Shown one piece after another: positions 3,556 to 22,357 of a stretch of DNA of 64,000 nucleotides. The stretch lies in contig CAZNZW010000002.1 of assembly GCA_964577615.1 (NCBI GenBank), forward strand, positions 24,333 through 88,332, in the 5' to 3' direction. The number at the start of each line of letters is the position of its first letter. Within the stretch, counting starts at the first letter, position 1. The position numbers and the translations under genes are program-made. Origin of the DNA: an uncultured Desulfobacterales bacterium (GTDB lineage Bacteria > Desulfobacterota > Desulfobacteria > Desulfobacterales > QNYZ01). The notes under the pieces were generated by a model. The model saw only the letters and a list, made by a program, of their open reading frames with translations. It was not told where the DNA came from and did no database searches.

Positions 3556-4719
3556 TTATCGATCATTGCCGGTGGGCGCTCCCGGGTAACGATCCGGTGT
3601 GGCCAGTTTGCCGGTAATCGCCTGAACCAGGTCATCCCGGCCCCGGCTTTTCAGCGGCTCGATCAGTTCCCGGTAAAAAGGCGGGCGGTGGCGGATGGTG
3701 ATGTCAAAGGGGGCGAGCATGTCCGGCGTGACATCGTCTTCGATAAAGGCGCGCGTCTGGTCCAGCCGGCCGAGGCCGACCAGGCCGAGCATGGTTCGCA
3801 CGCATTTTTCACACTTTCCGCAATTGAGCCGGTCGGGGACGTTGGCCAGGCAGACCCTGAAGTTCTGAAAGGCCGCCGGCCACTCGGAAACGATGCGCAG
3901 TTTTTCCATCCGGGGCAGTTCGGCATGGGCATGGTGAATACGCAGTTCATGGCTGGAATATAACGGGTCGAGCAGTGGGTGCGATCCGCAGGGGACCAGG
4001 TTGGGCAGGTCAAAGGAAGAGGCAATGTACAGCAGGTTGATCCGACTGGAAAACGCGTGGCCGGCCGCCGCCAGAACGGCGCCGAAAAAGTAATCCAGCC
4101 AGAGTGTCCGCTCGTCGCACAGATGGCGGATATTGGTATAGACGGGGATCAGGGAAATGTCGGCATCATCGGCCACCGCTGCCAGGGCCTGCCGGGCACG
4201 GTCAAAAACCGGATATTTCATGCCGCGTTCAACCACGCCGCCGATGTCGAACCCGTGAATGATCAGACCGTCCCGGATGGCGCCGGGGTGATCTGCCGGA
4301 AAGTGGCGCCGGTTCAGCCGCAGGGTGGCCAGCGAATCGATGCCGCCGGAGAGTACCATGGCCGCGCGGAGGGGCGACGGCGGTGTTGCAGCCTGCGCGC
4401 GCACCGGTATCTGAAGGTCAGGCGGCCGGTAGCGGCCGTGTGACCAGACGCGGACCAGGGCCATGGCCGTATCCAGCCCTTCTTTGAAATCAGGGCAGAT
4501 GGCGGGTGTCATGGCGATTCTTTTTTCCCCGAAATGCGTGGCGGGGATCAGGCTGCCCGCCAGAAAGGCTTCGGGAGAAATGGTGATACCGGCGCCAAAG
4601 GCGGCCGGTGTTTCGATATAGATGTCTTGCGCCGGTCGATCCCCGTCTTCCCAGACAACACGGGCCTGGACGCGGATCCGGTTGTTTTTTTCAATCCGTT
4701 TAAAATCAATTATCCGCAT
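3556..4719 (-). CDS. PP-loop (N-type ATP pyrophosphatase) family protein with QueC-like C-terminal Cys cluster; specific function unknown
   Basis: 387-aa ORF with SD AGGAGAA upstream. The PP-loop is 'MVLSGGIDSLATL' and the C-terminal cluster is 'CLANVPDRLNCGKCEKCVRTM' (CGxCxxC as in QueC). About 110 aa at the N-terminus have no motif I recognise. There is no N-terminal Cys glutaminase domain. Confidence 0.7.
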   Translation of the reverse strand: MRIIDFKRIEKNNRIRVQARVVWEDGDRPAQDIYIETPAAFGAGITISPEAFLAGSLIPATHFGEKRIAMTPAICPDFKEGLDTAMALVRVWSHGRYRPPDLQIPVRAQAATPPSPLRAAMVLSGGIDSLATLRLNRRHFPADHPGAIRDGLIIHGFDIGGVVERGMKYPVFDRARQALAAVADDADISLIPVYTNIRHLCDERTLWLDYFFGAVLAAAGHAFSSRINLLYIASSFDLPNLVPCGSHPLLDPLYSSHELRIHHAHAELPRMEKLRIVSEWPAAFQNFRVCLANVPDRLNCGKCEKCVRTMLGLVGLGRLDQTRAFIEDDVTPDMLAPFDITIRHRPPFYRELIEPLKSRGRDDLVQAITGKLATPDRYPGAPTGNDR

Positions 4720-5636
4720 GGATATTTCTCCTGTTTACCGGCCGTTATCCGTTCCACAACGCAGTCGATGATTTCCCCGGCGATATTCCGGCCCGTGGCG
4801 GCTTCGAGTCCTTTGAAACCAGGGGCGTAGTTGACTTCCACCACCAGGGGATCGCATCCTTTTTGCATCATCAGATCAACGCCGGCGATGTCGAGGCCCA
4901 CGGCCCGGGCTGCGCGGATCGACAGCTCCTGGATCGATGCCGGGGCGTCAAACAGGCGGCTGCGCCCACTGAGGTGGAAATTGGCCCGAAAATCCCCTGG
5001 CGCCGGGGTCAGGGCCTGGGCGCCGGCCACCCGGTTCCCAATCACCAGCACACGGATGTCCTGCCGGTCTTCCGGCGGCAGATAGCGCTGCACCAGAAGC
5101 CCCGGCCGCTTACCGGCCGGCCGGCCCAGATGCCCGGCCAGCATGGTCCGGGCCGTCTCGGCACTGTCGATCCTGAAAACCCCGCTGCCCTGGCGGTTGC
5201 TGACCTGTTTGATCACCACCGGATAGCCGCCCAGTTCATCGACGGCCCGGGGCAGCCCGGAAAAAGCATTGATGAAAACCGAATCGGGGAAGGGGATATC
5301 GGCCGCCGCCAGGGCCTGGAGGGTATAGAACTGATGCCGGCTGATCCGGATGGCGTCGAAATCGTTGATCACGGGAATGCCGGTCTGGCTGAACTGACGC
5401 ACCAGCGCCAGACACGACGGGCCGACATCGGCGCCCTGCCGGGGCAGGACGGCATCGGGAAGCGGATTTTCGTCTTCCCGGCAGAAAAATGCACTGCTGT
5501 TCAGGAAAGCGGGCCACAGCCGGTAAGGGTTCAGCACATCGACGATATGACCCTGCTGCGCGGCGGCCGCCATCAGCCGCCGGGTCGGGTGATAGGCCGG
5601 CCCCCTCACCGATATGATTCCAATTCGACAGGTCAT
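4710..5636 (-). CDS. RimK-family ATP-grasp ligase (alpha-L-glutamate-ligase-like)
   Basis: 308-aa ORF. 'GYPVVIKQVSNRQGSGVFRI', 'LLVQRYLPPEDRQDIRVLVIGNRVAGA', 'GDFRANFHLSG' and 'GLDIAGVDLMM...LVVEVNYAPGFKGLE' are the RimK ATP-grasp signatures. Its stop overlaps the next start by 10 nt, and its start overlaps the upstream stop (ATGA). Confidence 0.85.
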   Translation of the reverse strand: MTCRIGIISVRGPAYHPTRRLMAAAAQQGHIVDVLNPYRLWPAFLNSSAFFCREDENPLPDAVLPRQGADVGPSCLALVRQFSQTGIPVINDFDAIRISRHQFYTLQALAAADIPFPDSVFINAFSGLPRAVDELGGYPVVIKQVSNRQGSGVFRIDSAETARTMLAGHLGRPAGKRPGLLVQRYLPPEDRQDIRVLVIGNRVAGAQALTPAPGDFRANFHLSGRSRLFDAPASIQELSIRAARAVGLDIAGVDLMMQKGCDPLVVEVNYAPGFKGLEAATGRNIAGEIIDCVVERITAGKQEKYPCG

Positions 5637-6898
5637 GGTGTTTTTCTCCGCAGGTGTGCGGCCTGGGCTTCCGGCATCCAGACCCCCATTTGCTTGCCGG
5701 CGCGCGTGCTGAAAAACGAGGTGACCTTGCGGGTATTGTTGCGCCGGGCAATCGTCTGGGTGGCCCGGTTATCTTCGCTGATCAGGGAAAAAATGGGTCG
5801 ACCGTCGGCCCGGGCGGTGAGTGCCGCCAGCAGTTGGGTCGCGATACCCATCCCCCGGTACTCGGGTCGGACCGATGTGTACCCCCGTTCCAGATAATCG
5901 GACAGATCCAGACCGGTCTGTTCACTCAGAGCCGTGATATACTCGCGGCGGGGATGTTTGAGGCTGGAAACGGCTACCACCTGATCCAGTTCAGTCGCAT
6001 AGACAACCAGGAAAGCCCGCGTCAGATTATGCCGCATCCACCGGGTGCTCACGGAACCGCCGGCTTCGACCAGCTGGCAGATATCATCGAGGCGGGCGGC
6101 GGAAAGCGATTCGGGAGCGGCGGCCGGACGGGCAAAATGGCGCTGCATGTTTTCGCCAAGGGACACCACGCCCCGTGGCTGCTGCCGTACCCACCAGCGC
6201 CGGACGCGGACTGAGCCATAGGTGTCCAGATAGAGGAGCAGGTGCGCCGGCCCGGGCAGGGCGCGCCAGAACGGCCGGCCGGTAAGAAACGGCAGACGGG
6301 CGTGCTTTTCGGTCAGGGATTTGAAGGCAGCCTCCGGGCCTGGAAAACGGGCCGCGGCCGGCGTCGCCAATTGCCAGGAATGGACGATATTCGGATTGCC
6401 AATGGCAAAGCGCAGCAGGGCCGGGTCGGGATCCGATCCAGCGTCCGGGGGGAAAACCACGTGGTTCCAGATCCCGGCCTTTGCGTGCGCGCGCAAAATC
6501 CGGATCAGGCGGGGCAGCGGGCCACGCGGCGAGAGCCATTCGATGAGACGGATTCGGGACACGGAAACCGGCGCGTTGTCCGGGTCTGGGCCGGTATCAT
6601 CCAGCCGGACCCTCACCGCCAGCCCAGGGGCCGCCGATGGCAGTTCCAGCGCGGCATCAAGGGCGAGAACCTGGGCCCGGCTGAGCGGGGAAGACAGGTA
6701 TGCGGTTCCGATTTTCAGAAGCCGGGCCTGCGCCGTGATGTACGCGGCCGCGGATGTTGGCGAAACCGGCAATTCTGAAGGGTCATTTTCCGCAAAAACG
6801 GTCAAGACCCGTTCCAGTGACAGGGAGGGGAAATCGGGGGAAACCGGCGCCGGAGAGATTGGACGGATGTGAAGCGGGTGGTCTTCAAGCGGGTCCAT
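5633..6898 (-). CDS. Hypothetical protein with C-terminal GNAT acetyltransferase domain
   Basis: The C-terminal ~130 aa '...VVAVSSLKHP...RGYTSVRPEYRGMGIATQLLAALTA' carries the GNAT acetyl-CoA motif (R/Q-x-x-G-x-G/A). The ~270-aa N-terminal region is unrecognised. I prefer the ATG at 6898 with SD AGGGGGA over the TTG at 6904 used by the ORF track. Confidence 0.65.
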   Translation of the reverse strand: MDPLEDHPLHIRPISPAPVSPDFPSLSLERVLTVFAENDPSELPVSPTSAAAYITAQARLLKIGTAYLSSPLSRAQVLALDAALELPSAAPGLAVRVRLDDTGPDPDNAPVSVSRIRLIEWLSPRGPLPRLIRILRAHAKAGIWNHVVFPPDAGSDPDPALLRFAIGNPNIVHSWQLATPAAARFPGPEAAFKSLTEKHARLPFLTGRPFWRALPGPAHLLLYLDTYGSVRVRRWWVRQQPRGVVSLGENMQRHFARPAAAPESLSAARLDDICQLVEAGGSVSTRWMRHNLTRAFLVVYATELDQVVAVSSLKHPRREYITALSEQTGLDLSDYLERGYTSVRPEYRGMGIATQLLAALTARADGRPIFSLISEDNRATQTIARRNNTRKVTSFFSTRAGKQMGVWMPEAQAAHLRRKTP

Positions 6899-6956
6899 CG
6901 TCAAATCCCCCTGCTGTATCGGGTCATATGGGCTGTGAAAAACGTTTTCCGTCCAT

Positions 6957-6998: not shown

Positions 6999-7044
6999 AT
7001 TGAATGCCCGGCCGGCCGGGCGCAGAATCCCGGCGATGTAAGGA

Positions 7045-7148: not shown

Positions 7149-9152
7149 ATGAAATCGATTTATTTTTTATCATTAAATGCACTTGAATTTGTTCCTTACG
7201 CTTACGGGCTGCTGCGCAGTTTTGCGGAAACCGACCCGCGCGTTGCCGGCAGCTATGCCTGGCACGAACCGCTGACCCGCATCGAAGCCGTGGAAACAAC
7301 GGCTGCGAGAATCAAATCCCCGGATATTCTTTGCGCGTCCTGCTATGTCTGGAACGACAACCAGCAGGCGGCAATTATCCGGCGGGTCAAGGCCGCCCAT
7401 CCGGACTGCCGGGTGATTCTCGGCGGCCCGCATGTGCCGGATAACAGTGAGGGGTTTTTTGCCGCACGCCCTGAAGTGGATATTCTTGTTCACGGTGAAG
7501 GCGAATTACCCTTTTACCATCTGCTGCTGGCGTTGAGAGATGATTCTCCCCGGCTGGAGTCGATTGCCAATATCAGCTGCAATGCCAACGGGAAAACGCT
7601 GAAAACCCGCACCGCCCCCGGCCTGACGACGGCCTCCGGACAAAAAACAGAACCGGGCCAGCCGGCGTTCCTGCCGATCCCGAGCCCTTTTTTAAATGGG
7701 ATTTTTGACCGTTTTCTGGCCGACGGGGAAAAAAATAAAATCGGATTATGGGAAACCAACCGGGGCTGTCCGTATGCCTGCAGCTTCTGTGACTGGGGCG
7801 TGCGCAGCACCAATAAAATCAGGCGGCACGACATGAAGAAAATTGCCGCTGAAATCGATTATATTGCCCATCGGAAAATCGAAGATCTTTATATCACCGA
7901 TTGCAACTTCGGTATTCTGGAACGGGATCTTAAGATCACCGAAGAACTGGTTGCCGCCCGCCGGAAATATGGCTATCCCAAGCGGGTGCGGATCCAGTTT
8001 GCCAAGAATTCCAACGATACGGTTTTTGAAATCAGCCGGATGCTCCATGCCGAGGATATGCTGTGGGGCACCACCCTGTCGATGCAGAGTGTTGACGACG
8101 ATGTTCTGGCGGCTGTCAACCGGCGCCAGATCGGGACCCGTAACTACCAGCTTTTGAAAGACCGCTACCGGCAGGTGGACATTCCCACGTACACCGAGCT
8201 GATCCTCGGATTGCCGGCTGAAACCCGAACATCGTTTATCGATGGCATCTGTACCCTGATGGAAATCGGTATCCATGACGATATCCGTGTGTACGAACTG
8301 GCCCTGCTGCCCAATGCTCCCTTAAACCAGCCGCGCAAACGGGAAGCATTCGGTCTTAAGACAAAAGTGAGGGCCCTGCGCATTCCGTCCAGCGGGTGTG
8401 AAAAAGAGACGGTCGAAATCGTTTTTGAAACCAATACCCTGCCGCAGGCCGACTGGGCCTATTGCTATCTTTTTGAGGAAATGATCCAGGCCCTGCATAA
8501 CGGCGCCTATACGCGGTTTCTGTCCATTTATCTTAATGACACCGGCCAGATGTCCTACAGGCGGTTCTATAACCGGCTGCTGACCGTCATGCTGCATTCC
8601 AGCGACCCGGCCCATGCCGCTTTCAGACGGGTCCGCGACCTGATCGCCGCCTACTGCCGCGATGACAGCATTCCGCAGATCGCCAAAATGCTGACCCAGC
8701 CGGACATGTCGGCTTTTCTTGCCTCTTTCAACCCCAGACGGAAAGGGTGGCATCTGTGGACCTACCTCTGGCTGGCCGTCAGCGAGACGACCGATGCCTT
8801 TTATGCGGCACTGAGAACGTTTCTCGAAGGAGAAGGCATTGCCATCGATGCGGTCCTTGAGGATCTCCTGCACTATCAGCAGGAACTGATGCTGACGGTT
8901 GAATACGATCCGGGCCGGGGAAAGGAAGGCGTATACCGGTATAACTGGTTCGACTGTTTTTTTCACAATGCCCCGCTGAAACAGGAGGCGGTGACGCTTC
9001 AGTATACCGATACCCACATGGGCATTACCAATCGGTATCCGCTGGAAAAAGGCAATCGCCTGCGGTTTGTCAACGCCGCCATCGGGATTTCGTATCCCTA
9101 TACAAAGTTCAGGCACTTTTTTCATCAACCGGACCGGGTCGAAAAAAAATAG
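7149..9152 (+). CDS. B12-binding-domain radical SAM protein (class B), substrate unknown
   Basis: The start is taken at MKSIYFLSLN (ATG 7149); the track ORF from 6996 is an upstream extension. The N-terminal cobalamin-binding-like segment includes 'ILCASCYVWN...RVILGGPHV...DILVHGEGE'. The radical-SAM cluster motif is 'NRGCPYACSFCDWG'. A ~280-aa C-terminal extension has no further Cys clusters. Confidence 0.85.
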   Translation: MKSIYFLSLNALEFVPYAYGLLRSFAETDPRVAGSYAWHEPLTRIEAVETTAARIKSPDILCASCYVWNDNQQAAIIRRVKAAHPDCRVILGGPHVPDNSEGFFAARPEVDILVHGEGELPFYHLLLALRDDSPRLESIANISCNANGKTLKTRTAPGLTTASGQKTEPGQPAFLPIPSPFLNGIFDRFLADGEKNKIGLWETNRGCPYACSFCDWGVRSTNKIRRHDMKKIAAEIDYIAHRKIEDLYITDCNFGILERDLKITEELVAARRKYGYPKRVRIQFAKNSNDTVFEISRMLHAEDMLWGTTLSMQSVDDDVLAAVNRRQIGTRNYQLLKDRYRQVDIPTYTELILGLPAETRTSFIDGICTLMEIGIHDDIRVYELALLPNAPLNQPRKREAFGLKTKVRALRIPSSGCEKETVEIVFETNTLPQADWAYCYLFEEMIQALHNGAYTRFLSIYLNDTGQMSYRRFYNRLLTVMLHSSDPAHAAFRRVRDLIAAYCRDDSIPQIAKMLTQPDMSAFLASFNPRRKGWHLWTYLWLAVSETTDAFYAALRTFLEGEGIAIDAVLEDLLHYQQELMLTVEYDPGRGKEGVYRYNWFDCFFHNAPLKQEAVTLQYTDTHMGITNRYPLEKGNRLRFVNAAIGISYPYTKFRHFFHQPDRVEKK

Positions 9153-9162
9153 GAGAGTACCG

Positions 9163-10020
9163 ATGCCAACACTGATCAGATTGTCCCGGACCGCATGTGT
9201 TTTCCTGGCGCTTGTCTGTATCGTTTTTGGCGGTATCGATACTGGCTGGGCCGGGCCGCCGGCATCTTATACCAACTCACTGGGTATGGCATTTGTTCTG
9301 ATACCCGCCGGTACGTTTATCATGGGAAGTCCGGACGATGAAAAGGGGCGGGGAACATCCGAAGCCCGGCATAACGTCACGCTGACGCACCCTTTTTATA
9401 TTCAAACCACCGAAGTGACCGTTAAGCAGTGGCACCGGATCATGGGCCGTCCCCTGTTCGGCGGTCCCAGAAAACCGGATCAATTTCCGATCGTCAAGGT
9501 ATCGTGGTATGACGTCGCCAAATTCATCGCAAAGATGAATGCCCGCGGCGAGGGGACCTATCGCCTGCCCACCGATGCCGAATGGGAATACGCGGCCCGC
9601 GCGCGAAGCACCACAGCCTACAGCTGGGGGGCGGCCATCGATTGCGCCAGAGCCATGTTCAGTAATAATACGAATAAATCCAATAAGTGCGTGGAAGACG
9701 TGCGTGCAAAAGGCCTGAAAGCGGACATGCCGGCGCCGGTAAAAAGCTATCCGCCCAACAAATGGGGCCTGTTCGACATGCATGGAAATGTCTGGGAATG
9801 GTGTCAGGACGGGTTTGATCCCTACCGGCATCGGATGGATCCGTACCAGACATATGAGATAACCGACCCGGTAATCAGTCCCTCCGGCGGTAATCGAATC
9901 CGGCGGGGCGGCAGCTGGTTCGGGTCGGGGTATTCCTGCCGTTCCGCCAACCGCACCTACAGCAATCCGAACGTCCGTTACCGGACCACCGGTTTTCGTC
10001 TGGTCCGGGAAGCCCGATAA
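9163..10020 (+). CDS. Exported FGE-sulfatase-fold (SUMF1/EgtB/PvdO family) protein
   Basis: The ATG at 9163 follows SD AGGAGA. The signal peptide is 'MPTLIRLSRTACVFLALVCIVFGGIDTGWA'. Fold motifs are 'FIMGSPDDEKGR', 'YRLPTDAEWEYAAR', 'GLFDMHGNVWEWC', 'RGGSWFGSGYSCRSANR' and 'TGFRLVRE'. Confidence 0.85.
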   Translation: MPTLIRLSRTACVFLALVCIVFGGIDTGWAGPPASYTNSLGMAFVLIPAGTFIMGSPDDEKGRGTSEARHNVTLTHPFYIQTTEVTVKQWHRIMGRPLFGGPRKPDQFPIVKVSWYDVAKFIAKMNARGEGTYRLPTDAEWEYAARARSTTAYSWGAAIDCARAMFSNNTNKSNKCVEDVRAKGLKADMPAPVKSYPPNKWGLFDMHGNVWEWCQDGFDPYRHRMDPYQTYEITDPVISPSGGNRIRRGGSWFGSGYSCRSANRTYSNPNVRYRTTGFRLVREAR

Positions 10021-10060
10021 TCAATCGCCTTGTGAATAATACCAGAATCGAAAAAAATCG

Positions 10061-13000
10061 ATGACCAAACTCCTCAGCCGATGGCTCAATATCTACAAAA
10101 GCGAGATCGCGCTGTTTTTATGGGCTGCCGCACTTCTTTTCATCATCCGCAGCTGTGGGGTTTACCTGAACAACTATACGGAAACGACTTTTTTAAAGCG
10201 TTACGGGATAGAATATCTGCCCATTGTCAACATGGCCAACGCGGTGGTCACTTTTTTCATCATGGGCGTCATTACCGGTTTGATTGGGCGGTTTTCCGGG
10301 GCCCGGCTGCTGACCTATCTTTTTTTATTCTGCGGCCTTTCCATCGCGGGCATTCGTCTGATCATCCCTCTGGGATACGACCTGGTTTATCCGCTCCTGT
10401 TTATGCTCAAATCTCAATACGAAGTGGTACTGGCCCTGTTGTTCTGGAATCTGGCCAACGACATTTTCAATACGCGCCAGTCCAAACGGCTGTTTCCTTT
10501 GATCACCGCCGGCGGTATTGTGGGGCAGATTATCGGCAGTTTTTCCACTCCCATCATTGTCCGGAACATCTCCATCGACAACCTTTTGACGGTCTATCTG
10601 GCCATCACGCTGGTTGGCGCCCTTGTCATCAAGCTGATGCGAAACCGGTTTCCGACGCTTCTGTTCTCCACCCGGGAGCAGGCGAAGAAATCGTCCAGGG
10701 ACTCCATGGTGGGCGAAATCAAAAAAATGATCCCGCTGATCAAGACGTCTCCGCTGATCATGTTGATGATTATCCTGACCTTTATTCCCAACGTGGTCAT
10801 TCCCATCATGAATTATCAGTTTAACTACGCGGTCAACGATCAATTTGCCACTGAAATGAAACTGATTGAATTTTTTGGTTATTTTCGGGGCATCTTGAAT
10901 TCCATCAGCCTGGTGATCCTGCTGTTTGTCGGCCGGATTTACGGCCGCTGGGGGCTGCCCGTGGCGCTGATGTTTCATCCCTTTAATTACATGTTTGTTT
11001 TTCTGGCATTTTTTTTCCGGTTCGACGCCTTTACGGCCATCTATGCGCGTATGTCGTCAAATATTATCCGGTCAACGATCAATATTCCCACCATGGCCGT
11101 CCTGAACGGTCTTTTTCCAGATTCCTACCGGGAGTTGATCCGTCCCTTTCTCAGAGGAACCGTGGTCCGGATCGCCCTGTTTTTAGGCTCGGGGATGATC
11201 CTTCTGTCCACCGATCTTTTTCATCCCCGCTACCTCTCTCTGGTTGCCCTGCCTTTTGTCCTGATCTGGGTCATAACGCCCTTTATCCTCAAAAGGCGGT
11301 ATTCCCGTATTCTCCTCGATTTAATATCTCAAAACAGGGTCGATTTTAATTCTTTTGAACCCAAAGAAGTTCTTCATCTTTTCAAAGACAAGAACCTGAC
11401 GAAACATCTGGTTGATACCTTTGAATCTTCTCATGGGCAGGATTGTCTCTGGTATGCGCGGTTGATGCAGTCGCTGGGGATTTCCGATCTTGACAGCCGG
11501 ATTCTGGTAAAAATAGAAACGGAAAATGACGTCACCACCCGGATCGGCCTTCTCGATCTGCTTTCACGAGATGCCGCGGAAAGAGCCGTTGACATATTCA
11601 ACCGTTTATCCGAATCCGCCTCCCCCGACCTGAGCACGGCCCTGGTTCGAACCGCCGGCCGCCTGTCGCGGGATATCTTTCATGATTTCATTTTAAAACA
11701 ATATGAAACCAGTTCCTGCCCGGAAACCCGGGGGTATGCGGTGGCGGAGCTGTTTGAGCAAAATCCGGATACGTATCAGGAGACGATTCAGGCATGGCTG
11801 GCGTCAGACAATGCTGTTGAACGCAAGGCCGGCGTGGTGGCCGCCGGTCGCACGCACCGGGCAGCTTATGTTGATCAGTTGATGGCATTACTGTCTGGTG
11901 AAAAAGAACCCGCCGTCATTGCTGAGATCCTGACCGCTTTTCGTCGCCTGCAGGCGCCGGAACTGAACCAGGTGCTGCAGCCGTTCCTGAGGCATTCGAG
12001 TGAAACCGTACGGCTGAATGCTGTGGAGGCGTTTGAAATCAAAGATGACGCTTCCCTGCATGTCCTGCTGTTGCTTCTGGGAAACACTTCCGATAAAGTG
12101 GTTCGGAAAATCCGGGACAAAATCAAAAACGCGCCGTATCATAACAGTCAACTGCTTGTGGAAATGCTGGCCATACCCAAACGCCGTATTCGGGAGGGGA
12201 TCTTTCAGCTGATTGAAACGATGAATGTCAAGGATATTGACAGTGTTCAATATACTCACCGGCAGATCCGGCTATGCTACACCCATATTGCTGAAACCCT
12301 GGCTGTTTCAGGCTTTCCAGACAGTACATATAAAAATTTGCTGATCCAGCACCTCAATGAGCAGCGTATGCTTCGCGTCAATATTATTTTACGGGTGCTT
12401 TCAATTCTGGATCCCAGCGGCCGAATGAAGCTGATTTACCGGGGCCTGAATTCTTCAGATCGACACCGGAGAGGAAACAGCGTCGAGGCCCTTGAAAACC
12501 TGCTGGACAAACCGCTTTCCCGGGGCCTGATCCCACTGCTCGAAGAAATGGCGCCGGCGCGGCAGCTGGCGGTTGGGGAAAAATATTTCGACCTGCCGGT
12601 CATTCCCACCCGGCCGGCGCCGCTGGCCGAACATTTTTGTGGAAAGAAAGACTGGATTTCCTGTATCCTGATCCATCATATTTCAGAGAAAATCGCACCG
12701 GGCCAGATGCGTCCGAAGAAAATGGACGAAATATTTCCAATGGCGCCCAACGGCGCGCCCGCCAGCGATACGCAACCTGTTTTTTATTCAACTGCCGGGA
12801 AAATCAAGATGACAGACATGCTTACTCTGCCGGACAAGATCTTCAAGTTGAGAAAAGTTGAGATTTTCAAGGATCTCAGCGTCAGTGAACTGGCCGCTGT
12901 TGCCGCCATCACCGAGGAAGCGGAATTTTCCGAAGGAGATGTTGTTATTCGCGAAGGGGATATGAGCCAGGTCCTCTATCTGGTTATCGAAGGCGAAACG

Positions 13001-13294
13001 TCGGTTATCAAAAATATCGAAACCGACAGAGAGATGGAACTGGCGCGCATCGGCGCCAATGACTATTTCGGCGAAATGGCGCTTTTGGAAGACGGTCGGC
13101 CCCGCAGCGCCAGTATCCGCGTGGAAAAAAAATCCCGTTTTTTAACATTGCACAAGCAGGAACTTATGGATATTATCGACGAATATCCGAAAATCGCACT
13201 TAATTTCTGCCGGGTACTGACCCGGAGATTACGTGCGCTGGACGAAAAAGCCGGAGAAATCTGCAAGGATACGGATGCGGGTGACGGTCCCTGA
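10061..13294 (+). CDS. Multidomain membrane protein: TLC/Npt1-like (MFS-type) transporter domain + HEAT repeats + C-terminal cyclic-nucleotide-binding domain
   Basis: 1077 aa. About 12 hydrophobic segments include 'LLFWNLANDIFNTRQSKRLFPLITAGGIVGQIIG', which resembles the ATP/ADP-translocase (TLC) family motif. The middle has helical HEAT-like repeats ('AVERKAGVVAAGRT', 'SETVRLNAVEAFE', 'RHRRGNSVEALENL'). The C-terminal cNMP domain is 'FKDLSVSELAAVA...GDVVIREGD...YFGEMALLEDGRPRSASIRV'. Confidence 0.8.
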   Translation: MTKLLSRWLNIYKSEIALFLWAAALLFIIRSCGVYLNNYTETTFLKRYGIEYLPIVNMANAVVTFFIMGVITGLIGRFSGARLLTYLFLFCGLSIAGIRLIIPLGYDLVYPLLFMLKSQYEVVLALLFWNLANDIFNTRQSKRLFPLITAGGIVGQIIGSFSTPIIVRNISIDNLLTVYLAITLVGALVIKLMRNRFPTLLFSTREQAKKSSRDSMVGEIKKMIPLIKTSPLIMLMIILTFIPNVVIPIMNYQFNYAVNDQFATEMKLIEFFGYFRGILNSISLVILLFVGRIYGRWGLPVALMFHPFNYMFVFLAFFFRFDAFTAIYARMSSNIIRSTINIPTMAVLNGLFPDSYRELIRPFLRGTVVRIALFLGSGMILLSTDLFHPRYLSLVALPFVLIWVITPFILKRRYSRILLDLISQNRVDFNSFEPKEVLHLFKDKNLTKHLVDTFESSHGQDCLWYARLMQSLGISDLDSRILVKIETENDVTTRIGLLDLLSRDAAERAVDIFNRLSESASPDLSTALVRTAGRLSRDIFHDFILKQYETSSCPETRGYAVAELFEQNPDTYQETIQAWLASDNAVERKAGVVAAGRTHRAAYVDQLMALLSGEKEPAVIAEILTAFRRLQAPELNQVLQPFLRHSSETVRLNAVEAFEIKDDASLHVLLLLLGNTSDKVVRKIRDKIKNAPYHNSQLLVEMLAIPKRRIREGIFQLIETMNVKDIDSVQYTHRQIRLCYTHIAETLAVSGFPDSTYKNLLIQHLNEQRMLRVNIILRVLSILDPSGRMKLIYRGLNSSDRHRRGNSVEALENLLDKPLSRGLIPLLEEMAPARQLAVGEKYFDLPVIPTRPAPLAEHFCGKKDWISCILIHHISEKIAPGQMRPKKMDEIFPMAPNGAPASDTQPVFYSTAGKIKMTDMLTLPDKIFKLRKVEIFKDLSVSELAAVAAITEEAEFSEGDVVIREGDMSQVLYLVIEGETSVIKNIETDREMELARIGANDYFGEMALLEDGRPRSASIRVEKKSRFLTLHKQELMDIIDEYPKIALNFCRVLTRRLRALDEKAGEICKDTDAGDGP

Positions 13295-13378
13295 CAGATC
13301 GGCAGCCTGAACATGTTCCGGCCCGTTTCGGCCAATCGGTTGTTTGACATTTAAAAATTAAATTTTGAAGGCATTTCC

Positions 13379-14383
13379 ATGAAAATTGCTTTTATGATGG
13401 ACCATCTGGAAGATATCGACCCCGTCTGGGAGACAACCAGCCATTTGATGTACGAATCCAACCAGCGGGGACATACCGTCTATTTTCTTGAGCCCCACGA
13501 TATCTACATCCGAAAAAATAAGGTCATGGCCCGCATGTACGATGTTACGGTGGCGGCGGAGCAGTCCATAAAGCAGTACTGGCGGTCAGCCATCCGCTGT
13601 CTGAAGAAAGAAGGGCGGGTTTTTGAGTCGCTGTCCAAAATCGATGCGCTGTTTCTCCGAAAAAACCCCCCCCTCCAGTATCAGGCCATGGAATTTCTGT
13701 CTCCCTTTTCCGATCAGGTGTTTATGCTCAACCATACACTGGGGCAGATGCAGGGAAACGGCAAACTGTATACCTTGAATTTTCCCGATATCATCCCGGT
13801 CACCCATGTCTCCCGCGACCCGGCCCGTTTAAAAAAGATCATCGACGACTTCGGGGGCGCCATGGTCGTCAAACCGCTGCAGCGGTTCGGCGGCGAAGGC
13901 GTGATCAAGGTCAGCACCAGGGACCAGGAAAATCTGCTTTCGTTGATCAACTACTACGTTCGGGCCTATGAACCGTACCATAACCGTGAACCGATAATGG
14001 TACAGGAGTATCTTGACCAGGTGCGCACAGAAGGGGATATTCGTATTTTACTGCTCAACGGCGAAATTATCGGCGCCATGCAGCGCAAACCGTCCGCCGG
14101 CGAATTCCGGGCCAATGTCCATGCCGGGGCCAAGGTATTCAAGCACCGGGTAACCCCGGCGGAACGTAAAATCTGCCAGACCATCGGTGACCGGCTGAGG
14201 GCCGACGGTCTTTTTTTTGTGGGGATCGACATTATCGGGGACAGACTGGTTGAAATCAACTGCGTCAGCCCCGGCGGGATTCCCCGCATCAACAAGCTTG
14301 ACCACGTAAAGCTGGAAAAGGATGTGATCGATTTTATCGAAGACCGGGTAACCCGCATGAAAAATGGAAACGAGGGCCCATGA
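13379..14383 (+). CDS. gshB: Glutathione-synthetase-type (GshB family) ATP-grasp ligase
   Basis: 334 aa. The N-terminus 'MKIAFMMDHLEDIDPVWETTSHLMYESNQRGHTVYFLEPHDIY' and the C-terminal 'GDIRILLLNGEIIGAMQRKPSAGEFRANVHAGA...GLFFVGIDIIGDRLVEINCVSPGGI' closely follow E. coli GshB ('GLIFVGLDIIGDRLTEINVTSPTCI'). Substrate specificity is not proven. Confidence 0.7.
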   Translation: MKIAFMMDHLEDIDPVWETTSHLMYESNQRGHTVYFLEPHDIYIRKNKVMARMYDVTVAAEQSIKQYWRSAIRCLKKEGRVFESLSKIDALFLRKNPPLQYQAMEFLSPFSDQVFMLNHTLGQMQGNGKLYTLNFPDIIPVTHVSRDPARLKKIIDDFGGAMVVKPLQRFGGEGVIKVSTRDQENLLSLINYYVRAYEPYHNREPIMVQEYLDQVRTEGDIRILLLNGEIIGAMQRKPSAGEFRANVHAGAKVFKHRVTPAERKICQTIGDRLRADGLFFVGIDIIGDRLVEINCVSPGGIPRINKLDHVKLEKDVIDFIEDRVTRMKNGNEGP

Positions 14384-16125
14384 GGAGACGGAATATGTAC
14401 ATGCGGCCCTGGGTGAAAATCGCATTTCTACTGGCAACCGTTGCCCTGGTGACCGCCTGCCGGCCGGCCAGGGTGCCGGATTACCTTCGCGTCGGCCTGG
14501 TGGCCGAACCCAAGACGCTGCATATCTGGCTGGCCAGTGACCGCAACTCCAGAAAAATTCTGTCCCTGATCTATCAGCCATTGTACATCCGTGACCCGGT
14601 GACCTTGAAACAGGTCCCCTGGCTGGCGGCCGCCCCGCCCATTTACGATCCGACGACCATTTCCTATACGGTTACACTGCGCCCGGCCCGGTGGTCGGAC
14701 GGCAGCGAGGTGACATCGGCGGACGTGGCCTTTACCGGCCGGTTGATCCGCTCGTTTAAGATTCCGCGGCGCTACTCCCGCTGGAAATTTGTCAAAAAAA
14801 TTACCACGCCGGATAAACGGACGGTTGTCTTCTACCTGAAGTCGCCCAAGGCAATTTTTACCACCCGGACCCTGACGACTCCCATTGTTCCGCGGAAGCA
14901 GTGGCAGCCCATTGCGGCCGCAGCCAGAAAGAAGAAGAAGCCGCTCAAGGCCCTGCTCGATACCGCCATTTCTCATCCGATCGGCTGTGGGCCGTTTATT
15001 CTCAGGGAATGGCGACAGGGGACCTATCTGTACCTGACCCGGAACCCCTACTTTTTCGGTACCCATTCCCGCATTGCCGGCCGGTTGCTTGGCCCCTATG
15101 TCAACGGTCTGCTGTTCAAGATTTATGGCACGTCGGATGTTGCCATCCTTGCCCTGAAAAAGGGGACGCTTGACATGTTCTGGTGGACGCTGCAGCCGGG
15201 ATATATCGCTGATCTGCGTAAAGACACTCATATCCGGCTTTTTTCAAATGAAAAAAGTGCGCTGTATTTCATGGGGTTTAATCTGCGTCGACCGCCGTTC
15301 AGTGATGTCCGGTTGCGGCGGGCCATGGCCACCCTGATTGATAAAAAATTCATCACCCATCGCATTTTGCAGAACCAGGGGGCCCCCATGTACTCCATTG
15401 TTCCGGCCGAAAACAGGTTCTGGTGCTGTGAAGATGTTCCCCGCTATGGTGATGACCTGACATGGGAAGAGCGGGTCAGACGGGCTTTCCGGATTCTCTC
15501 CAATGCCGGGTATTCCTGGGATGTCCCGCCCGTGGGTGAGGATGGCCGCATTCGTCCGGCCAGCGGTTTTCGCCTGCCCGATGGAAAATTGATGGCCCGC
15601 TTTACCATCCTGACGCCTCCGGCGGATTACGATCCCTTAAGGGCCATGAGCGGGATGATGATCCAGCAATGGTTCAGGGCCCTGGGTATGCCGGCCTTTG
15701 CACGGCCCATGGCATTTGGCGCTCTGCTTAACCAGATAAAATCCGCACACGATTTTGATGTCTTCATACTGGGATACGGCAATTTATCCCTGGACCCGGA
15801 TTTCCTGCGCGTCTTTTTCTATTCCAAAAACGATAAACCCCGGGGGTGGAACATGTCCGGGTACCATAACCCCGATTTTGACCGGATTGCCAAGGCCTCC
15901 CGTTCGGCCATGAATCGTGAAGACCGCCGCAAACTGATTTTTGAGATGCAGAAAATGGTCATGGCCGATATCCCCTACCTGCCTTTGTATAAACCGTCAG
16001 TCGTTGAGGCGGTTCGCAAAGGGCGTTTTACGGGCTGGGTAAACATGATTGAAGGCATCGGCAACATCTGGTCGTTTTGTGAAGTCCGGCCGGTGGCCGG
16101 CCGGTCACCGGCGACTTCCCAATGA
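14380..16125 (+). CDS. ABC transporter substrate-binding lipoprotein, peptide/nickel (family 5; DppA/OppA/GsiB-like)
   Basis: The start overlaps the gshB-like stop (ATGA). Alternative ATGs at 14395 and 14401 follow SD GAGGAG. The lipoprotein signal is 'WVKIAFLLATVALVTAC'. The length (~580 aa) and operon context with DppBCDF-type partners support the call. Confidence 0.8.
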   Translation: MRRRNMYMRPWVKIAFLLATVALVTACRPARVPDYLRVGLVAEPKTLHIWLASDRNSRKILSLIYQPLYIRDPVTLKQVPWLAAAPPIYDPTTISYTVTLRPARWSDGSEVTSADVAFTGRLIRSFKIPRRYSRWKFVKKITTPDKRTVVFYLKSPKAIFTTRTLTTPIVPRKQWQPIAAAARKKKKPLKALLDTAISHPIGCGPFILREWRQGTYLYLTRNPYFFGTHSRIAGRLLGPYVNGLLFKIYGTSDVAILALKKGTLDMFWWTLQPGYIADLRKDTHIRLFSNEKSALYFMGFNLRRPPFSDVRLRRAMATLIDKKFITHRILQNQGAPMYSIVPAENRFWCCEDVPRYGDDLTWEERVRRAFRILSNAGYSWDVPPVGEDGRIRPASGFRLPDGKLMARFTILTPPADYDPLRAMSGMMIQQWFRALGMPAFARPMAFGALLNQIKSAHDFDVFILGYGNLSLDPDFLRVFFYSKNDKPRGWNMSGYHNPDFDRIAKASRSAMNREDRRKLIFEMQKMVMADIPYLPLYKPSVVEAVRKGRFTGWVNMIEGIGNIWSFCEVRPVAGRSPATSQ

Positions 16126-16150
16126 TTCGGCGATTTAAGGAACAGGTATA

Positions 16151-17128
16151 ATGGGTCTAAAAAAATATATTCTTCGGCGGCTGGCAGGGGTGATCGTTAT
16201 CTTTTTCATTATTCTGACCCTGCTGTTTATTCTGTTTCGTCTGGCCCCCGGAGATCCGGTGTCGCGGATGGTCGACCCCAGCCTGACGCCGGAGGATGCG
16301 ACCTACCTGATCGCGCAACTGGGACTGGACCAGCCCGTGGCGATCCAGTATCTCTACTATCTTAAGAATATCTGTACCGGGTTTATGGGGTTTTCCTTTC
16401 ACTACGGCCTGCCGGTGACCGATATCATCCTCGACCGGCTGCCCAACACGATCTACCTGTTTACCACTGCGGTGATTTTGTCGGCGCTGCTGGGTATTTT
16501 TCTTGGGAAAATTGCGGCCTGGCACCGGGGCACCGGTACCGATTCGGTAATGACCATTGTGGCGCTTTTCTGCCATACGCTCTTTCTCCCCTGGCTGGCC
16601 CTGATCATGATCTGGTTTTTTGGATACAGGGTCGGCTGGTTCCCGTTGTCCGGTATGATTTCGCCGGAATTGTGGGTGACGCCCTCAACCGGCGCGGCGG
16701 CAAAATTTTTCGATGTGCTGCACCACATGGCCCTGCCGCTGGTTACATTGATGGTTATCCATTTCGGCAGCTATCTCCTCATCATGCGGAGCAGCATGCT
16801 CGATACGCTGAACGAAGACTACATTATCACGGCCCGGGCCAAGGGGCTCGACGAAAAGCGTATCCGCGATCATCATGCCGCGCCCAACGCCGCCCTGCCA
16901 CTGGTGACCAGTATCGGACTCAGCCTTGCCTTTTCCCTCAACGGCGGGGCATTGACCGAAACGGTCTTTACCTGGCCCGGCATCGGCCGGGAGCTGGTCT
17001 TTGCCGTGAGCAGCAATGATTACCCGCTGGCCCAGGCCTGCTTTCTGCTTATTGCCGGTGTTGTCCTGGTGGCCAACCTGATTGTGGATGTTCTTTATGC
17101 GTATCTGGATCCCCGGATTCGATATTAA
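16151..17128 (+). CDS. Peptide ABC transporter permease (DppB/OppB-like)
   Basis: 325 aa. The canonical N-terminus is 'KYILRRLAGVIVIFFIILTLLFILFRLAPGDPV'. The EAA-loop region is 'EDYIITARAKGLDEKRIRDHH'. Confidence 0.85.
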   Translation: MGLKKYILRRLAGVIVIFFIILTLLFILFRLAPGDPVSRMVDPSLTPEDATYLIAQLGLDQPVAIQYLYYLKNICTGFMGFSFHYGLPVTDIILDRLPNTIYLFTTAVILSALLGIFLGKIAAWHRGTGTDSVMTIVALFCHTLFLPWLALIMIWFFGYRVGWFPLSGMISPELWVTPSTGAAAKFFDVLHHMALPLVTLMVIHFGSYLLIMRSSMLDTLNEDYIITARAKGLDEKRIRDHHAAPNAALPLVTSIGLSLAFSLNGGALTETVFTWPGIGRELVFAVSSNDYPLAQACFLLIAGVVLVANLIVDVLYAYLDPRIRY

Positions 17129-17145
17129 CCCCAAGGAGTCAAAAC

Positions 17146-18084
17146 ATGCCGGAAAATGCGGCGACACGATCATTTTCTACATCTCATCCCCGACGGTCAC
17201 ATCTTCTATACCGTTTTAGATCCGGATGGGCAGTGTACAGAGAAAATCTGCTGGGACGTATCGGCCTGATCCTGCTGGCCGTTTTTGGCCTCATGGCGGC
17301 TGCCAGCTTTATTCCTCCCCTGATTAATCCGATTTACGACCCCATGTCCGGGGTGGACCCGCTGATCTCCCATGCCACCTGGCCGAGCCTGCATCACTGG
17401 CTGGGCACGGATTTCATTGGCCGCGACATATTCAGCCAGCTGTTAACCGGCGCCCGGATCGCATTTATCGTGGGGGTTTCTTCTGCGTTCATGAGCATTG
17501 TGGTGGGGACCATCGTCGGCATGGTGGCCGGCTATGCCGGCGGGATTGTTGACACGCTGCTCATGCGCACGGCCGATATTGTCATGGTCATGCCGACCCT
17601 TCTCGTTATTCTGATTCTGGCCGCGCTTTTCGGGCAACTCAGCATATGGATTATTGTTCTGCTGATTGCCGTTTTCCGCTGGCCGGCGGTTGCCCGGGTG
17701 ATTCGGGCCCAGACCCTTTCCCTGAAACGACGCCCCTTTGTTGATGCGGCACGGGTGACCGGAGCCTCTGTTTTTCGAATTATTTTCCGGCATATCCTGC
17801 CCAACGTTCTGCCGCTGGCGCTTTTGTATATGACGTTCAGGGTCACTTCGGCGATTTTGATTGAAGCGGCCCTGGCCTTTCTGGGATTCGGCGATCCGGG
17901 AACGGTCAGCTGGGGGATGATGCTTCAATGGGTCTGGAAAACAGGGCATATGTTTCAGGCCCCGTACTGGCTGCTGCCACCGGGAATCTGCATCTCTTTG
18001 ATTACCCTGTCGTTTTATATGGTGGGCCGGGCCATGGATGAAGTGCTGGATCCCCGTTTGAGAAAAGAAAAAGGACCTGAATAA
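17146..18084 (+). CDS. Peptide ABC transporter permease (DppC/OppC-like)
   Basis: 312 aa, with 'GTDFIGRDIFSQLLTGARIAF' and 'PFVDAARVTGASVFRIIFRHILPN'. Confidence 0.85.
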   Translation: MPENAATRSFSTSHPRRSHLLYRFRSGWAVYRENLLGRIGLILLAVFGLMAAASFIPPLINPIYDPMSGVDPLISHATWPSLHHWLGTDFIGRDIFSQLLTGARIAFIVGVSSAFMSIVVGTIVGMVAGYAGGIVDTLLMRTADIVMVMPTLLVILILAALFGQLSIWIIVLLIAVFRWPAVARVIRAQTLSLKRRPFVDAARVTGASVFRIIFRHILPNVLPLALLYMTFRVTSAILIEAALAFLGFGDPGTVSWGMMLQWVWKTGHMFQAPYWLLPPGICISLITLSFYMVGRAMDEVLDPRLRKEKGPE

Positions 18085-18085
18085 C

Positions 18086-19066
18086 ATGGCGCTGCTGGAA
18101 GTATCTGATTTAACCATCGGCTACCGGATTCGCGACCGACGTATCAAAGCGGTCGATTCGGTATCATTTTCCCTTCGGCGGGGGGAAACGCTCGGACTGG
18201 TCGGAGAATCGGGCAGTGGTAAAACGACCATCGGCATGTCTCTTCTGCGGCTGCTGCCAGATAATGCTTCGGTTTTGTCCGGCACCCTTTTGTTTGACGG
18301 CCAGGATCTTCTGACCCTGTCCGATGAGGCGATTCGGGCGATTCGCGGCCGCAGGATCGCCATGATTTTTCAGGCGGCCATGAACGCGCTCAATCCGGTT
18401 CAGCGGGTCAACGAACAGGTGGCCGAAGCGCTGCGGGTTCATGACCCCGACCTGAGCCGGCAGGATGCCCTGCACAAAACACGGGCATTGTTTGACAGTG
18501 TGGGAATTCCTGACAGCCGTCATAACAACTACCCCCATCAGTACAGCGGCGGCATGAAACAGCGCGCCATTATTGCCATGGCATTGAGCTGCGGGCCGTC
18601 GCTTCTAATTGCCGATGAACCGACCACTGCGCTGGACGTCATTGTTCAGGGACAGATTCTGAAAGAGATCCGGACCATCCAGGAAAAGACGCAGGTGGCC
18701 ATGGTATTTATTTCACACGATATTTCCGTTGTGGCCGATATCTGCCACAATATCGCCGTGATGTATGGCGGCCGGATCATCGAAATCGGCCGACGGGAAG
18801 AGATCCTGGCGAGTCCGGCGCATCCGTATACCCGAATGCTCCTGGCCTCCAATCTGACCCTGGCCGACCATGTATATCAACTGCCGCCGCTTCCCGATCC
18901 GGACACGGCCCGGGACAGCTGCGGCGAGGAGCTGGCCGGCTGCCCGTTCTGGCCCCGCTGTCCGGAGAACAGCGCCCCCTGCCGGACCGATGTCACCCCG
19001 CGGGTCGCCCTTTCGTCATCCCACCATGTCTTCTGCCTTAACATGGAAAAAGGGTCTTCGATATGA
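18086..19066 (+). CDS. Peptide ABC transporter ATP-binding protein (DppD/OppD-like)
   Basis: Walker A 'GESGSGKTT', signature 'YSGGMKQR' and Walker B '[12 protein letters not shown]'. The C-terminal oligopeptide-type extension has Cys residues. Confidence 0.9.
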
Positions 19067-20052
19067 ATGCAACAGCATCGCCCATCATCAGAGTTGACCA
19101 GATCAGCAAAATATACCGTCCCCGGCACAGCCTCGGCAACGCACAACCCGCCGCCCCTGTGGTGGCGCTGAACCATGTGTCCCTCGATATCCGGCCGGGA
19201 GAGATATTCGGGCTGGTGGGAGGCAGCGGCAGTGGAAAAACCACGCTGGGACGCCTGCTGGTCAAACTGGACAAGGCCGACAGCGGCCAGATTTTTCTTC
19301 ACGGGCAGGATACCACCGGTCTCCGGGGCCGCGCGTTAAAGGCGCTGCGTGCCCGGGTGCAGATGGTGTTCCAGGATCCGTATCAGTCCCTGAATCCGCA
19401 GTTGACGATTTTTGAAACCGTGGCCGAACCCCTCATTGTCCATCGTGCGGGCGATCAAGACGTCCGCGTTAAAAAAGTGGCAGACGTACTGACAACTGTC
19501 GGGTTTCATCCGGCGGAGGACTATTTCTCCCGCTATCCCCATGAATTGTCCGGCGGTCAGCGTCAGCGCGCGGCCATTGCCCGGGCCATGGTATTGGACC
19601 CGGAATTTATCGTGGCGGATGAACCGACGTCCATGCTTGATGCCACCAGTTCTTTTCAGATTTTCAAAATCCTTTCGGATCTGAGAGAAAAAAACCGGGT
19701 GGCGTTTCTTTTTATAACGCACAGCCTGGCGGCGGCCAATTTTCTGTGCGACCGCATTGCCGTCATTTACCACGGCAACCTCGTGGAGATGGGCCCGGCG
19801 CGGCAGGTGATTCAGCATCCGGCGCACCCGTACACCATGGCGCTCATCGATGCTCTGCCGGCGTATTGTCAGCATGCGGCCTGCCGGTTTTACAATGCGC
19901 TCATGGAAACGGATCGCCAGCTGCCCGATCAGGACCACTGCCCGTTTTTTGTCAGTTGCCGGCGGGCGGATCCGGATCAGTGCGCGACCCGGCAACCCGC
20001 CATGACCCCTTTGACCGATACCCACAGCGTTGCCTGTTTTAAGGCGGGATAA
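19063..20052 (+). CDS. Peptide ABC transporter ATP-binding protein (DppF/OppF-like)
   Basis: Walker A 'GGSGSGKTT', signature 'LSGGQRQR' and Walker B 'FIVADEPTSMLD'. It overlaps the upstream stop by 4 nt. Confidence 0.9.
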   Translation: MNATASPIIRVDQISKIYRPRHSLGNAQPAAPVVALNHVSLDIRPGEIFGLVGGSGSGKTTLGRLLVKLDKADSGQIFLHGQDTTGLRGRALKALRARVQMVFQDPYQSLNPQLTIFETVAEPLIVHRAGDQDVRVKKVADVLTTVGFHPAEDYFSRYPHELSGGQRQRAAIARAMVLDPEFIVADEPTSMLDATSSFQIFKILSDLREKNRVAFLFITHSLAAANFLCDRIAVIYHGNLVEMGPARQVIQHPAHPYTMALIDALPAYCQHAACRFYNALMETDRQLPDQDHCPFFVSCRRADPDQCATRQPAMTPLTDTHSVACFKAG

Positions 20053-22333: not shown

Positions 22334-22357
22334 CGCCGTCGCCCGGGAGGATTACCG

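Follow-up and report, generated by a model that had tools for sequence, protein, structure and literature searches.

Introduction

The canonical NTTs, such as AtNTT1, Chlamydia Npt1/NTT1 and Rickettsia Tlc (PF03219; TCDB 2.A.12; PDB entries 9j3j-9j3o), are carriers with 12 transmembrane (TM) helices in the fold of the major facilitator superfamily (MFS). Fusions of an NTT to HEAT repeats, and of an NTT to HEAT repeats and a domain for binding cyclic nucleotides (cNBD), have been described (Major et al., 2017, Genome Biol Evol; PMC5381601). In that study, NTT-HEAT fusions were monophyletic and widespread in bacteria, Deltaproteobacteria included, with further members in cyanobacteria, Chlamydia and oomycetes, and the data set held 33 deltaproteobacterial NTT sequences. 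None of the fusions had been characterized, and the authors suggested that the cNBD might bind cAMP from an adenylate cyclase and in this way adjust ATP uptake. Here we describe such a fusion from an uncultured Desulfobacterales bacterium. It is encoded at 10061-13294 of a stretch of 64,000 nucleotides (contig CAZNZW010000002.1; hereafter the window), together with a class III nucleotidyl cyclase related to Synechocystis Cya2.

Two other groups of proteins are relevant. The sperm Na+/H+ exchanger SLC9C1, the HCN/CNG channels and the bacterial channels SthK and MloK1 resemble the fusion protein in that a cNBD with this fold follows a membrane transport domain at the C-terminal, cytoplasmic end. 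They differ from it in having a CPA exchanger or a tetrameric channel in place of an MFS/NTT carrier, and in linking it to the cNBD by a C-linker in place of a long HEAT solenoid. In Cya2, a guanylyl cyclase, Glu488 sets base specificity, and the E488K substitution converts it to an adenylyl cyclase (PMC5995499; also PMC4284465).

With the same three domains in the same order, the protein is a further member of a published, functionally uncharacterized family, and both the NTT-HEAT-cNBD architecture and the cAMP-tuning hypothesis were already in print (PMC5381601). An earlier note on this DNA, made from the sequence alone, had stressed that no protein of this architecture has been characterized; that statement held in our literature search, whereas the fusion and the proposal of cyclic nucleotide control turned out to have been published. 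What is new here is the conserved core of cyclase, formylglycine-generating enzyme (FGE)-fold protein and transporter, the guanylyl cyclase-type residues at the base-specifying positions, and the ligase, PP-loop and ABC importer genes that recur nearby. In Major et al., no Cya2-like cyclase, FGE-fold protein, ATP-grasp/PP-loop enzyme or Opp-type importer is reported as a conserved neighbor; all of these are found at the locus described here. On balance, we think that the protein is probably an NTT-type carrier regulated by a cyclic nucleotide monophosphate (cNMP), and that it acts as the membrane effector of the neighboring cyclase within a larger conserved module.

Results

Architecture of the Fusion Protein

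The open reading frame (ORF) begins with ATG and encodes 1077 amino acids (Table 1), and its coordinates, strand and length are exactly those of the earlier note. The TLC, HEAT and cNMP-binding domains named there all pass their Pfam cutoffs in a hidden Markov model search. An AlphaFold2 model was built from 32 family members (mean predicted local distance difference test [pLDDT] score 77; predicted template modeling [pTM] score 0.50). It consists of 12 long TM helices (residues 13-423), about 26 shorter repeat helices (434-891), a disordered linker (892-918), and a β-roll with a C-terminal helix (923-1072). NTT, HEAT region and C-terminal cNBD follow one another in a single polypeptide, as is typical of the fusion clade, and more than 120 homologues share this arrangement. 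The predicted cytoplasmic loops of the membrane domain contain 23 Lys and Arg residues versus 6 in the predicted outer loops. By this positive-inside count both termini are predicted to face the cytoplasm, which would place the HEAT region and the cNBD there, as a cNMP sensor requires.

The 32 relatives were aligned (47-100% identity). Conservation, taken as the mean fraction of the majority residue per column, was 0.77 in the TM domain, 0.72 in the cNBD, 0.57 in the HEAT region and 0.39 in the linker. The carrier and the cNBD are the best-conserved parts, a pattern in keeping with a functioning transporter and a functioning sensor and with selection in both roles.

Table 1. Positions of the Fusion Protein, Its Parts and the Neighboring Genes in the Window
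Feature	Position	Strand	Residues or size	Basis or remark
NTT(TLC)-HEAT-cNBD fusion protein, full ORF	10061..13294	+	1077 aa	Pfam, AlphaFold2, homologues
12-TM MFS-fold domain, NTT/TLC type	10061..11335	+	aa 1-425	Pfam TLC, PDB profile search, Foldseek
Signature FWNLANDIFNTRQSKRLFPLITAGG	10442..10516	+	aa 128-152	End of TM4, cytoplasmic loop 4-5, start of TM5; alignment to NTTs
HEAT-like α-solenoid, about 26 helices, predicted cytoplasmic	11360..12733	+	aa 434-891	Pfam HEAT_2, AlphaFold2
cNBD (β-roll and C-helix)	12827..13276	+	aa 923-1072	Pfam, PKG/PKA-R/CRP matches, Foldseek
Phosphate-binding cassette FGEMALLEDGRPRSASI	13067..13117	+	aa 1003-1019	Conserved in homologues
Class III nucleotidyl cyclase, Cya2-like, membrane anchored (2 TM)	20098..21540	+		Guanylate_cyc, 98.8 bits
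B12-binding radical SAM enzyme	7149..9152	+		Similar to KedN5 family C-methyltransferases; first gene of the array
FGE-sulfatase-fold protein (PvdO/GldK-like), secreted or membrane anchored	9163..10020	+	285 aa	Directly upstream of the fusion gene
Glutathione synthetase-like (GshB-like) ATP-grasp ligase	13379..14383	+		267.8 bits versus GshB equivalog cutoff of 272
Opp/Dpp-type ABC importer	14380..20052	+		SBP_bac_5 binding protein, two permeases, two ATPases
Class II glutamine amidotransferase (weakly EgtC-like) and weakly LCIB-like protein	21569..23545	+		Last two genes of the array
GNAT-like protein	5633..6904	-	about 421 aa	Weak C-terminal GNAT match, otherwise unannotated
RimK-family α-L-glutamate ligase (ATP-grasp)	4710..5636	-		TIGR00768, 162 bits versus 143
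Putative divergent PP-loop ATP pyrophosphatase	3556..4719	-	387 aa	Cx9CxxCxxC motif; sequence motifs, weak fold match

The Membrane Domain Resembles NTTs

Pfam TLC (PF03219) matched residues 121-337 with 45.2 bits against a gathering cutoff of 21; the match is partial and covers profile positions 160-387 of 491. MFS_1 stayed below threshold over the same region. Searched against the PDB as a single sequence, the membrane domain matched only AtNTT1 (9j3j, E = 7.6e-4) and Chlamydia pneumoniae NTT1 (9j3n, E = 1.1e-3). A family profile of the N-terminal domain, run against the whole PDB, again retrieved only these two solved NTTs (9j3n, E = 1.8e-6; 9j3j, E = 3.9e-5). Foldseek searches of PDB chains ranked AtNTT1 first (9j3l/9j3m, TMt 0.70-0.71 over about 470 columns, 474 for the match at 0.71) and Chlamydia NTT1 next (9j3n, TMt 0.66). 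Canonical NTTs are accordingly both the best structural matches of the domain and its only sequence-profile matches in the PDB. The domain thus scores as TLC and has a 12-TM MFS fold nearest to solved NTTs, and the phosphate-binding cassette is intact (see below); these were the two points on which the earlier note had staked its idea.

The signature FWNLANDIFNTRQSKRLFPLITAGG, which the note had quoted, aligns with FWGFAN(Q/E)I...AK(K/R)FYPL of AtNTT1 and Chlamydia NTT1. The pattern common to all three in loop 4-5 is FW(N/G)(L/F)AN...(S/A)K(R/K)(L/F)(F/Y)PL, and it includes the Asn of the FW..AN motif (N133). The RQSKR stretch of loop 4-5 is invariant in the 32-member alignment. Further invariant basic residues lie on the cytoplasmic face, namely R357, R361 and R365 in loop 10-11 and R370 at the start of TM11, and the TM domain as a whole contains many invariant polar or charged residues. 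From these similarities we assign the domain as a divergent member of the NTT branch. Nucleotide transport is putative, and an anionic, nucleotide-like substrate is the default guess from family membership. In one respect the protein departs clearly from canonical NTTs: it carries a cytoplasmic regulatory tail of some 650 residues, and they have no such tail.

The HEAT Region and the Predicted Cyclic Nucleotide Sensor

Residues 605-683 matched Pfam HEAT_2 (PF13646) with 35.8 bits (cutoff, 27.7), which identifies the region as HEAT. As a single sequence the HEAT region found nothing in the PDB. The whole-protein family profile, full-length rows included, matched the alphaRep designed HEAT proteins there (E = 1e-45 to 1e-74). 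The family as a whole retains this domain of about 460 residues, even in members with only 23% identity.

The cNBD was identified by Pfam cNMP_binding (PF00027; residues 955-1042, 65.7 bits versus 27.5) and by sequence matches to PKG, PKA-R and CRP. It superposes on cAMP-bound MtbCRP and GlxR with a root-mean-square deviation of 1.8 Å (Foldseek), and through it cNBD-regulated transporters and channels appear among the Foldseek matches of the protein. Both the eight-stranded β-roll and the C-helix are present in the model, with pLDDT values of 83-90 over most of residues 923-1060 and of 76-78 around residues 1001-1020.

The phosphate-binding cassette FGEMALLEDGRPRSASI, also quoted in the earlier note, carries a Glu for contact with the ribose and an Arg for contact with the phosphate, arranged as expected of a cNMP site (Gly-Glu and Arg-(Ser/Thr/Ala)-Ala). 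F1003, G1004, E1005, M1006, L1008, R1015 and A1017 are invariant in the 32 relatives, and S1016 is found in at least 90% of them. In 85 genome-derived homologues its pattern is FGEMAL..R[S/T/A]A[T/S], with one GQMAL variant and one gapped sequence as the exceptions. A Ser after the cassette Arg fits the cGMP-type sites of PKG and CNG and the CRP-type cAMP sites alike. Ser/Thr at this position would suit cGMP-type sites but occurs in CRP too, so the receptor side does not decide the ligand.

The Neighboring Cyclase

Exactly one cyclase domain and one cNBD, that of the fusion protein, are found in the 64-kb window, and both lie in one gene array. The earlier note had placed a class III cyclase at 20098-21540 on the same strand; it is there, in the same uninterrupted array. 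Its closest PDB relative is Synechocystis Cya2 (2W01, E = 5.8e-57), which it matches over the transducer element and the catalytic core, and it contains the FGRY cyclase-transducer motif. At the N terminus it has two TM helices with a short loop, not the CHASE2 sensor of Cya2. The two enzymes also differ in the base-specifying pair, which is Asp/Ser in the window cyclase (VDDFIGD, KYSIIG) and Glu/Gly (Glu488/Gly562) in Cya2.

The base-specifying residues were read from an alignment of 33 cyclases encoded beside homologues of the fusion protein, the window's own included. The Cya2 pair Glu/Gly (IDEFIGD/KYGIVG) occurs in 17, all of them orthologues, with 48-57% identity to the window enzyme. Asp/Ser is confined to five, the window cyclase and its four closest relatives; Gln/Ala is found in nine, all non-orthologous neighbors; and Asp/Gly and Lys/Gly occur once each, the latter being the sole pair with an adenylyl-type Lys. 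The window enzyme has Asp at the position of that Lys, four residues before the second metal-binding Asp. An Asp at the base position is neither the Lys of adenylyl cyclases nor the Glu of guanylyl cyclases. Judged from these residues, the messenger linked to the transporter is more likely cGMP in most lineages, and cGMP or another non-cAMP nucleotide is at least as likely a signal as cAMP. Of the two messengers offered by the earlier note, cAMP is poorly matched by a Cya2-like cyclase that lacks the adenylyl Lys, and cGMP, or another cNMP, stands. A literature search on cGMP in sulfate reducers found nothing relevant.

Conservation of the Gene Neighborhood

The window proteins were compared by tblastn with 85 related loci, and neighbors were counted in the 31 loci flanked on each side by 9 kb or more. 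In 13 of these 31, an orthologous cyclase lies within 10 kb, orthology being taken as identity of at least 45% with coverage of at least 90%. The FGE-fold gene is the most constant neighbor (19 loci) and always lies directly upstream of the fusion gene, 0.4-0.7 kb away. The GshB-like ligase, the ABC importer and the GNAT-like protein each recur in 17 loci, the RimK-family ligase in 14 and the PP-loop protein in ten. The B12-binding radical SAM enzyme was found in only four, all from closer relatives, and the amidotransferase and the LCIB-like protein are restricted to the closest relatives.

The order of these genes varies (survey locus numbers in parentheses). FGE-fusion-GshB-ABC-cyclase is the order in the window and in four relatives (L003-L006). 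Elsewhere we found cyclase-FGE-fusion-GshB-ABC (L007, L032), GshB-ABC-cyclase-FGE-fusion (L035, L039, L041, L088), ABC-cyclase-GAF protein-FGE-fusion (L008, L060), and FGE-fusion-cyclase (L047). That the cyclase linkage survives this reshuffling at 45-52% protein identity speaks for a coupling in function and against inheritance of gene order as the cause. The link to the cyclase that the earlier note had proposed is thereby strengthened, since the orthologue stays near the transporter gene through several rearrangements.

The GAF-domain protein in the fourth of these arrangements has about 780 residues and is encoded between the cyclase and the FGE-fold gene (L008, 6618-8948; L060, 6510-8873). 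The hosts are Desulfosarcina widdelii (L060) and a related organism with a 7.7-Mb genome. The protein could be a second cNMP receptor of the same module.

Context tracks the phylogeny of the fusion protein in a neighbor-joining tree. In the clade of the window, the fusion gene is accompanied by the FGE-fold gene and by an orthologue of the cyclase. GshB, ABC and RimK are retained in a second clade, often with a different cyclase directly adjacent. A third clade has only a 26-30% identical PP-loop homologue directly downstream of the fusion gene, followed by a radical SAM gene (L053). Non-orthologous cyclases stand directly beside the fusion gene in L026, L044, L054 and L078, which belong to another clade than that of the window. 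In a further lineage, the neighbors of a family member of 33% identity include a PP-loop enzyme of the ThiI type and a radical SAM/SPASM protein (L089, 1121-2290 and 7861-9477). The pair echoes the PP-loop and radical SAM pairing of the Desulfobacterales loci and may be a coincidence.

Organization of the Array

The fusion gene is the third in a plus-strand array that runs from 7149 to 23545 with intergenic gaps of at most 84 nt. The order is B12/radical SAM enzyme, FGE-fold protein, fusion protein, GshB-like ligase, ABC importer (five genes), cyclase, amidotransferase and LCIB-like protein. No convincing terminator was seen between the genes of the array, a terminator-like hairpin lies 3' of the last one, and divergent promoter-like sites are found at 6957-7074. 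The stop codon of the GshB-like gene overlaps the longest-ORF start of the binding-protein gene of the ABC importer, whose called start is 11 nt after that stop. No γ-glutamylcysteine ligase gene was found near the GshB-like gene.

The FGE-fold protein has a signal peptide or membrane anchor at residues 4-22. Its best matches are PvdO and GldK/PorK, not true formylglycine-generating enzymes, and it presumably keeps only one of the two catalytic cysteines of human FGE. The LCIB-like protein at the end of the array (22358-23545, plus strand, 395 aa) weakly matches the LCIB/LCIC β-carbonic-anhydrase-like domain (28.8 bits versus 25). This domain is familiar from algal CO2-concentrating mechanisms.

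Upstream of the array, three minus-strand genes diverge from it, encoding the GNAT-like, RimK-family and PP-loop proteins. The PP-loop protein contains SGGIDS at residues 123-128 and a C-terminal motif C289-x9-C299-x2-C302-x2-C305; C243 is also invariant. It has more than 1000 homologues, all unannotated, and it gave no sequence match in Pfam, NCBIfam or the PDB. In fold searches with a model of pLDDT 70, NcsA was the best match (E = 4.5e-3), and NAD synthetase and TilS were far weaker (E = 0.13-0.3). On these weak fold matches the 387-residue protein is assigned, provisionally, at the level of the PP-loop superfamily only. Two small ORFs lie downstream of its gene, at 2725-2886 and 3008-3208 on the minus strand; one encodes 53 aa, very basic and with a C-terminal CVLGGRC, and the other 66 aa. 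In L005, L006, L009 and L010 the two ORFs are retained with 42-76% identity, and both are missing from remoter loci. A reading of the cluster as one for a ribosomally synthesized and post-translationally modified peptide was set aside; the two small ORFs are conserved in the closest clade only.

Distribution of the Family

A word-indexed search returned 895 relatives, of which the best 120 are nearly all about 1070 residues long with the same domains; precomputed TLC matches are given for most homologues. An exhaustive search of representatives yielded 707 clusters at 50% identity (E ≤ 1e-30), a count that may include a minority of multi-cNBD proteins, and the most divergent full-length relatives have 23% identity. 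Relatives occur in the genomes of 393 GTDB species. Among the best 80 of the 393, almost all belong to Desulfobacterales, Desulfatiglandales and Desulfohalobiaceae. Cultured carriers include Desulfosarcina widdelii PP31, with a cyclase-linked cluster, and strain NaphS2, with the PP-loop context. The taxonomic range of the homologues (Deltaproteobacteria, Nitrospirae, Aminicenantes) agrees with Table 1 of Major et al. (PMC5381601).

Discussion

The observations suggest how the module might operate. The protein would be an inner-membrane 12-TM carrier of the NTT/TLC branch of the MFS, with a cytoplasmic tail made of the HEAT solenoid and a CRP/PKA-type cNBD. The Cya2-like class III cyclase of the same operon-like array, which probably makes its signal, would synthesize a 3',5'-cyclic nucleotide, predicted to be cGMP in most orthologues. 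The cyclic nucleotide would bind to the phosphate-binding cassette, and the resulting movement of the C-helix would be relayed by the HEAT solenoid to the side of the carrier that faces the cytoplasm, where the invariant basic loops 4-5 and 10-11 may take part. Transport would be switched on or off as a result. The carrier would in this way serve as the membrane effector of a module whose other parts are the secreted FGE-fold protein, the PP-loop enzyme, the pair of ATP-grasp ligases and the peptide importer of Opp type. What the analysis establishes is the identity of the domains, the predicted topology, the conservation of residues that contact the ligand, the gene linkage that persists through rearrangement, and the base-specifying residues of the cyclases. 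We infer that the product of the cyclase is the ligand and that gating passes through the HEAT solenoid, just as we infer direct gating by the neighbor's cAMP or cGMP, the direction of transport and the substrate.

Several observations weigh against this proposal. On the carrier side, the protein is only 15-17% identical to characterized NTTs, with sequence-level coverage of TM4-TM10 only, and it scores 39.4 bits against a cutoff of 387.2 for TIGR00769, the NCBIfam model of the NTP/NDP exchange transporter superfamily, so the substrate class is not transferable from NTT homology. The low pTM (0.50) and the disordered linker mean that the packing of the domains, including any contact between HEAT region and carrier, is not fixed by the model. 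On the signaling side, the window cyclase carries Asp in place of the specificity-setting Glu, which makes its product unpredictable, and the sequence of the cassette does not co-vary with the type of cyclase. Of the fully flanked loci, 17 of 31 have no cyclase within 10 kb, and family members in other phyla, at 26-33% identity, lack the cluster altogether. Finally, the papers that we found after Major et al. (2017) merely cite that work, and none is a functional study of any family member.

A more specific version may be held for Desulfobacterales and their relatives. There the protein could be the dedicated receptor of a Cya2-type guanylyl cyclase, the two forming a bacterial cGMP signaling pair; it would switch a carrier that serves a peptide ligation and uptake module and moves a product or precursor of that pathway, not ATP. 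We put this forward tentatively, as possible but doubtful.

The same data can be read in other ways. The NTT-like domain might sense or anchor rather than transport, with the HEAT repeats recruiting the soluble enzymes or the ABC importer and the cNMP controlling assembly. As Major et al. point out (PMC5381601), HEAT repeats are a classical surface for contacts between proteins; the long HEAT domain is retained family-wide, and the linkage to soluble ligases and the PP-loop enzyme persists in two separate clades. The TM domain, however, is the best-conserved part and is rich in invariant polar and charged residues, which is typical of an active carrier and not of a mere anchor. We regard such a transceptor or scaffold as unlikely, if somewhat less so than the readings that follow.

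The neighborhood might instead reflect inherited synteny without functional coupling, the cNBD answering to the global cNMP pool or to a ligand that is not a cNMP. Some CRP/FNR-type domains do bind non-cNMP ligands. The loci without a cyclase and the distant members without the cluster point in the same direction. But a linkage that runs through at least four gene orders at such divergence is hard to put down to inertia, non-orthologous cyclases lie directly beside the gene in another clade, and the Glu and Arg that canonically contact a cNMP are present in the cassette. Synteny alone is an improbable account of the locus. Slightly more improbable is the classical alternative of an energy-scavenging ATP/ADP or NTP importer whose uptake cAMP matches to energy demand (Major et al., 2017, and the earlier note): the domain does belong to the TLC/NTT family and shares its loop 4-5 signature with AtNTT1 and Chlamydia NTT1, but its similarity to ATP/ADP exchangers is very low, and a cAMP-tuned ATP importer is disfavored by the hosts, which are Desulfobacterales and related bacteria that live freely, have genomes as large as 7.7 Mb and are not energy parasites, and by the linked cyclases, which lack the adenylyl-type Lys in all but one of the 33.

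We therefore return to the carrier regulated by the product of its neighboring cyclase as the reading that we favor. To our knowledge, very few effectors of bacterial cGMP signaling have been described. The conserved association of the fusion protein with a Cya2-like cyclase and with a particular group of enzymes leads to concrete, testable hypotheses, and in the cultured hosts D. widdelii PP31 and NaphS2 its ligand, its substrate and its role in the cell could be sought.

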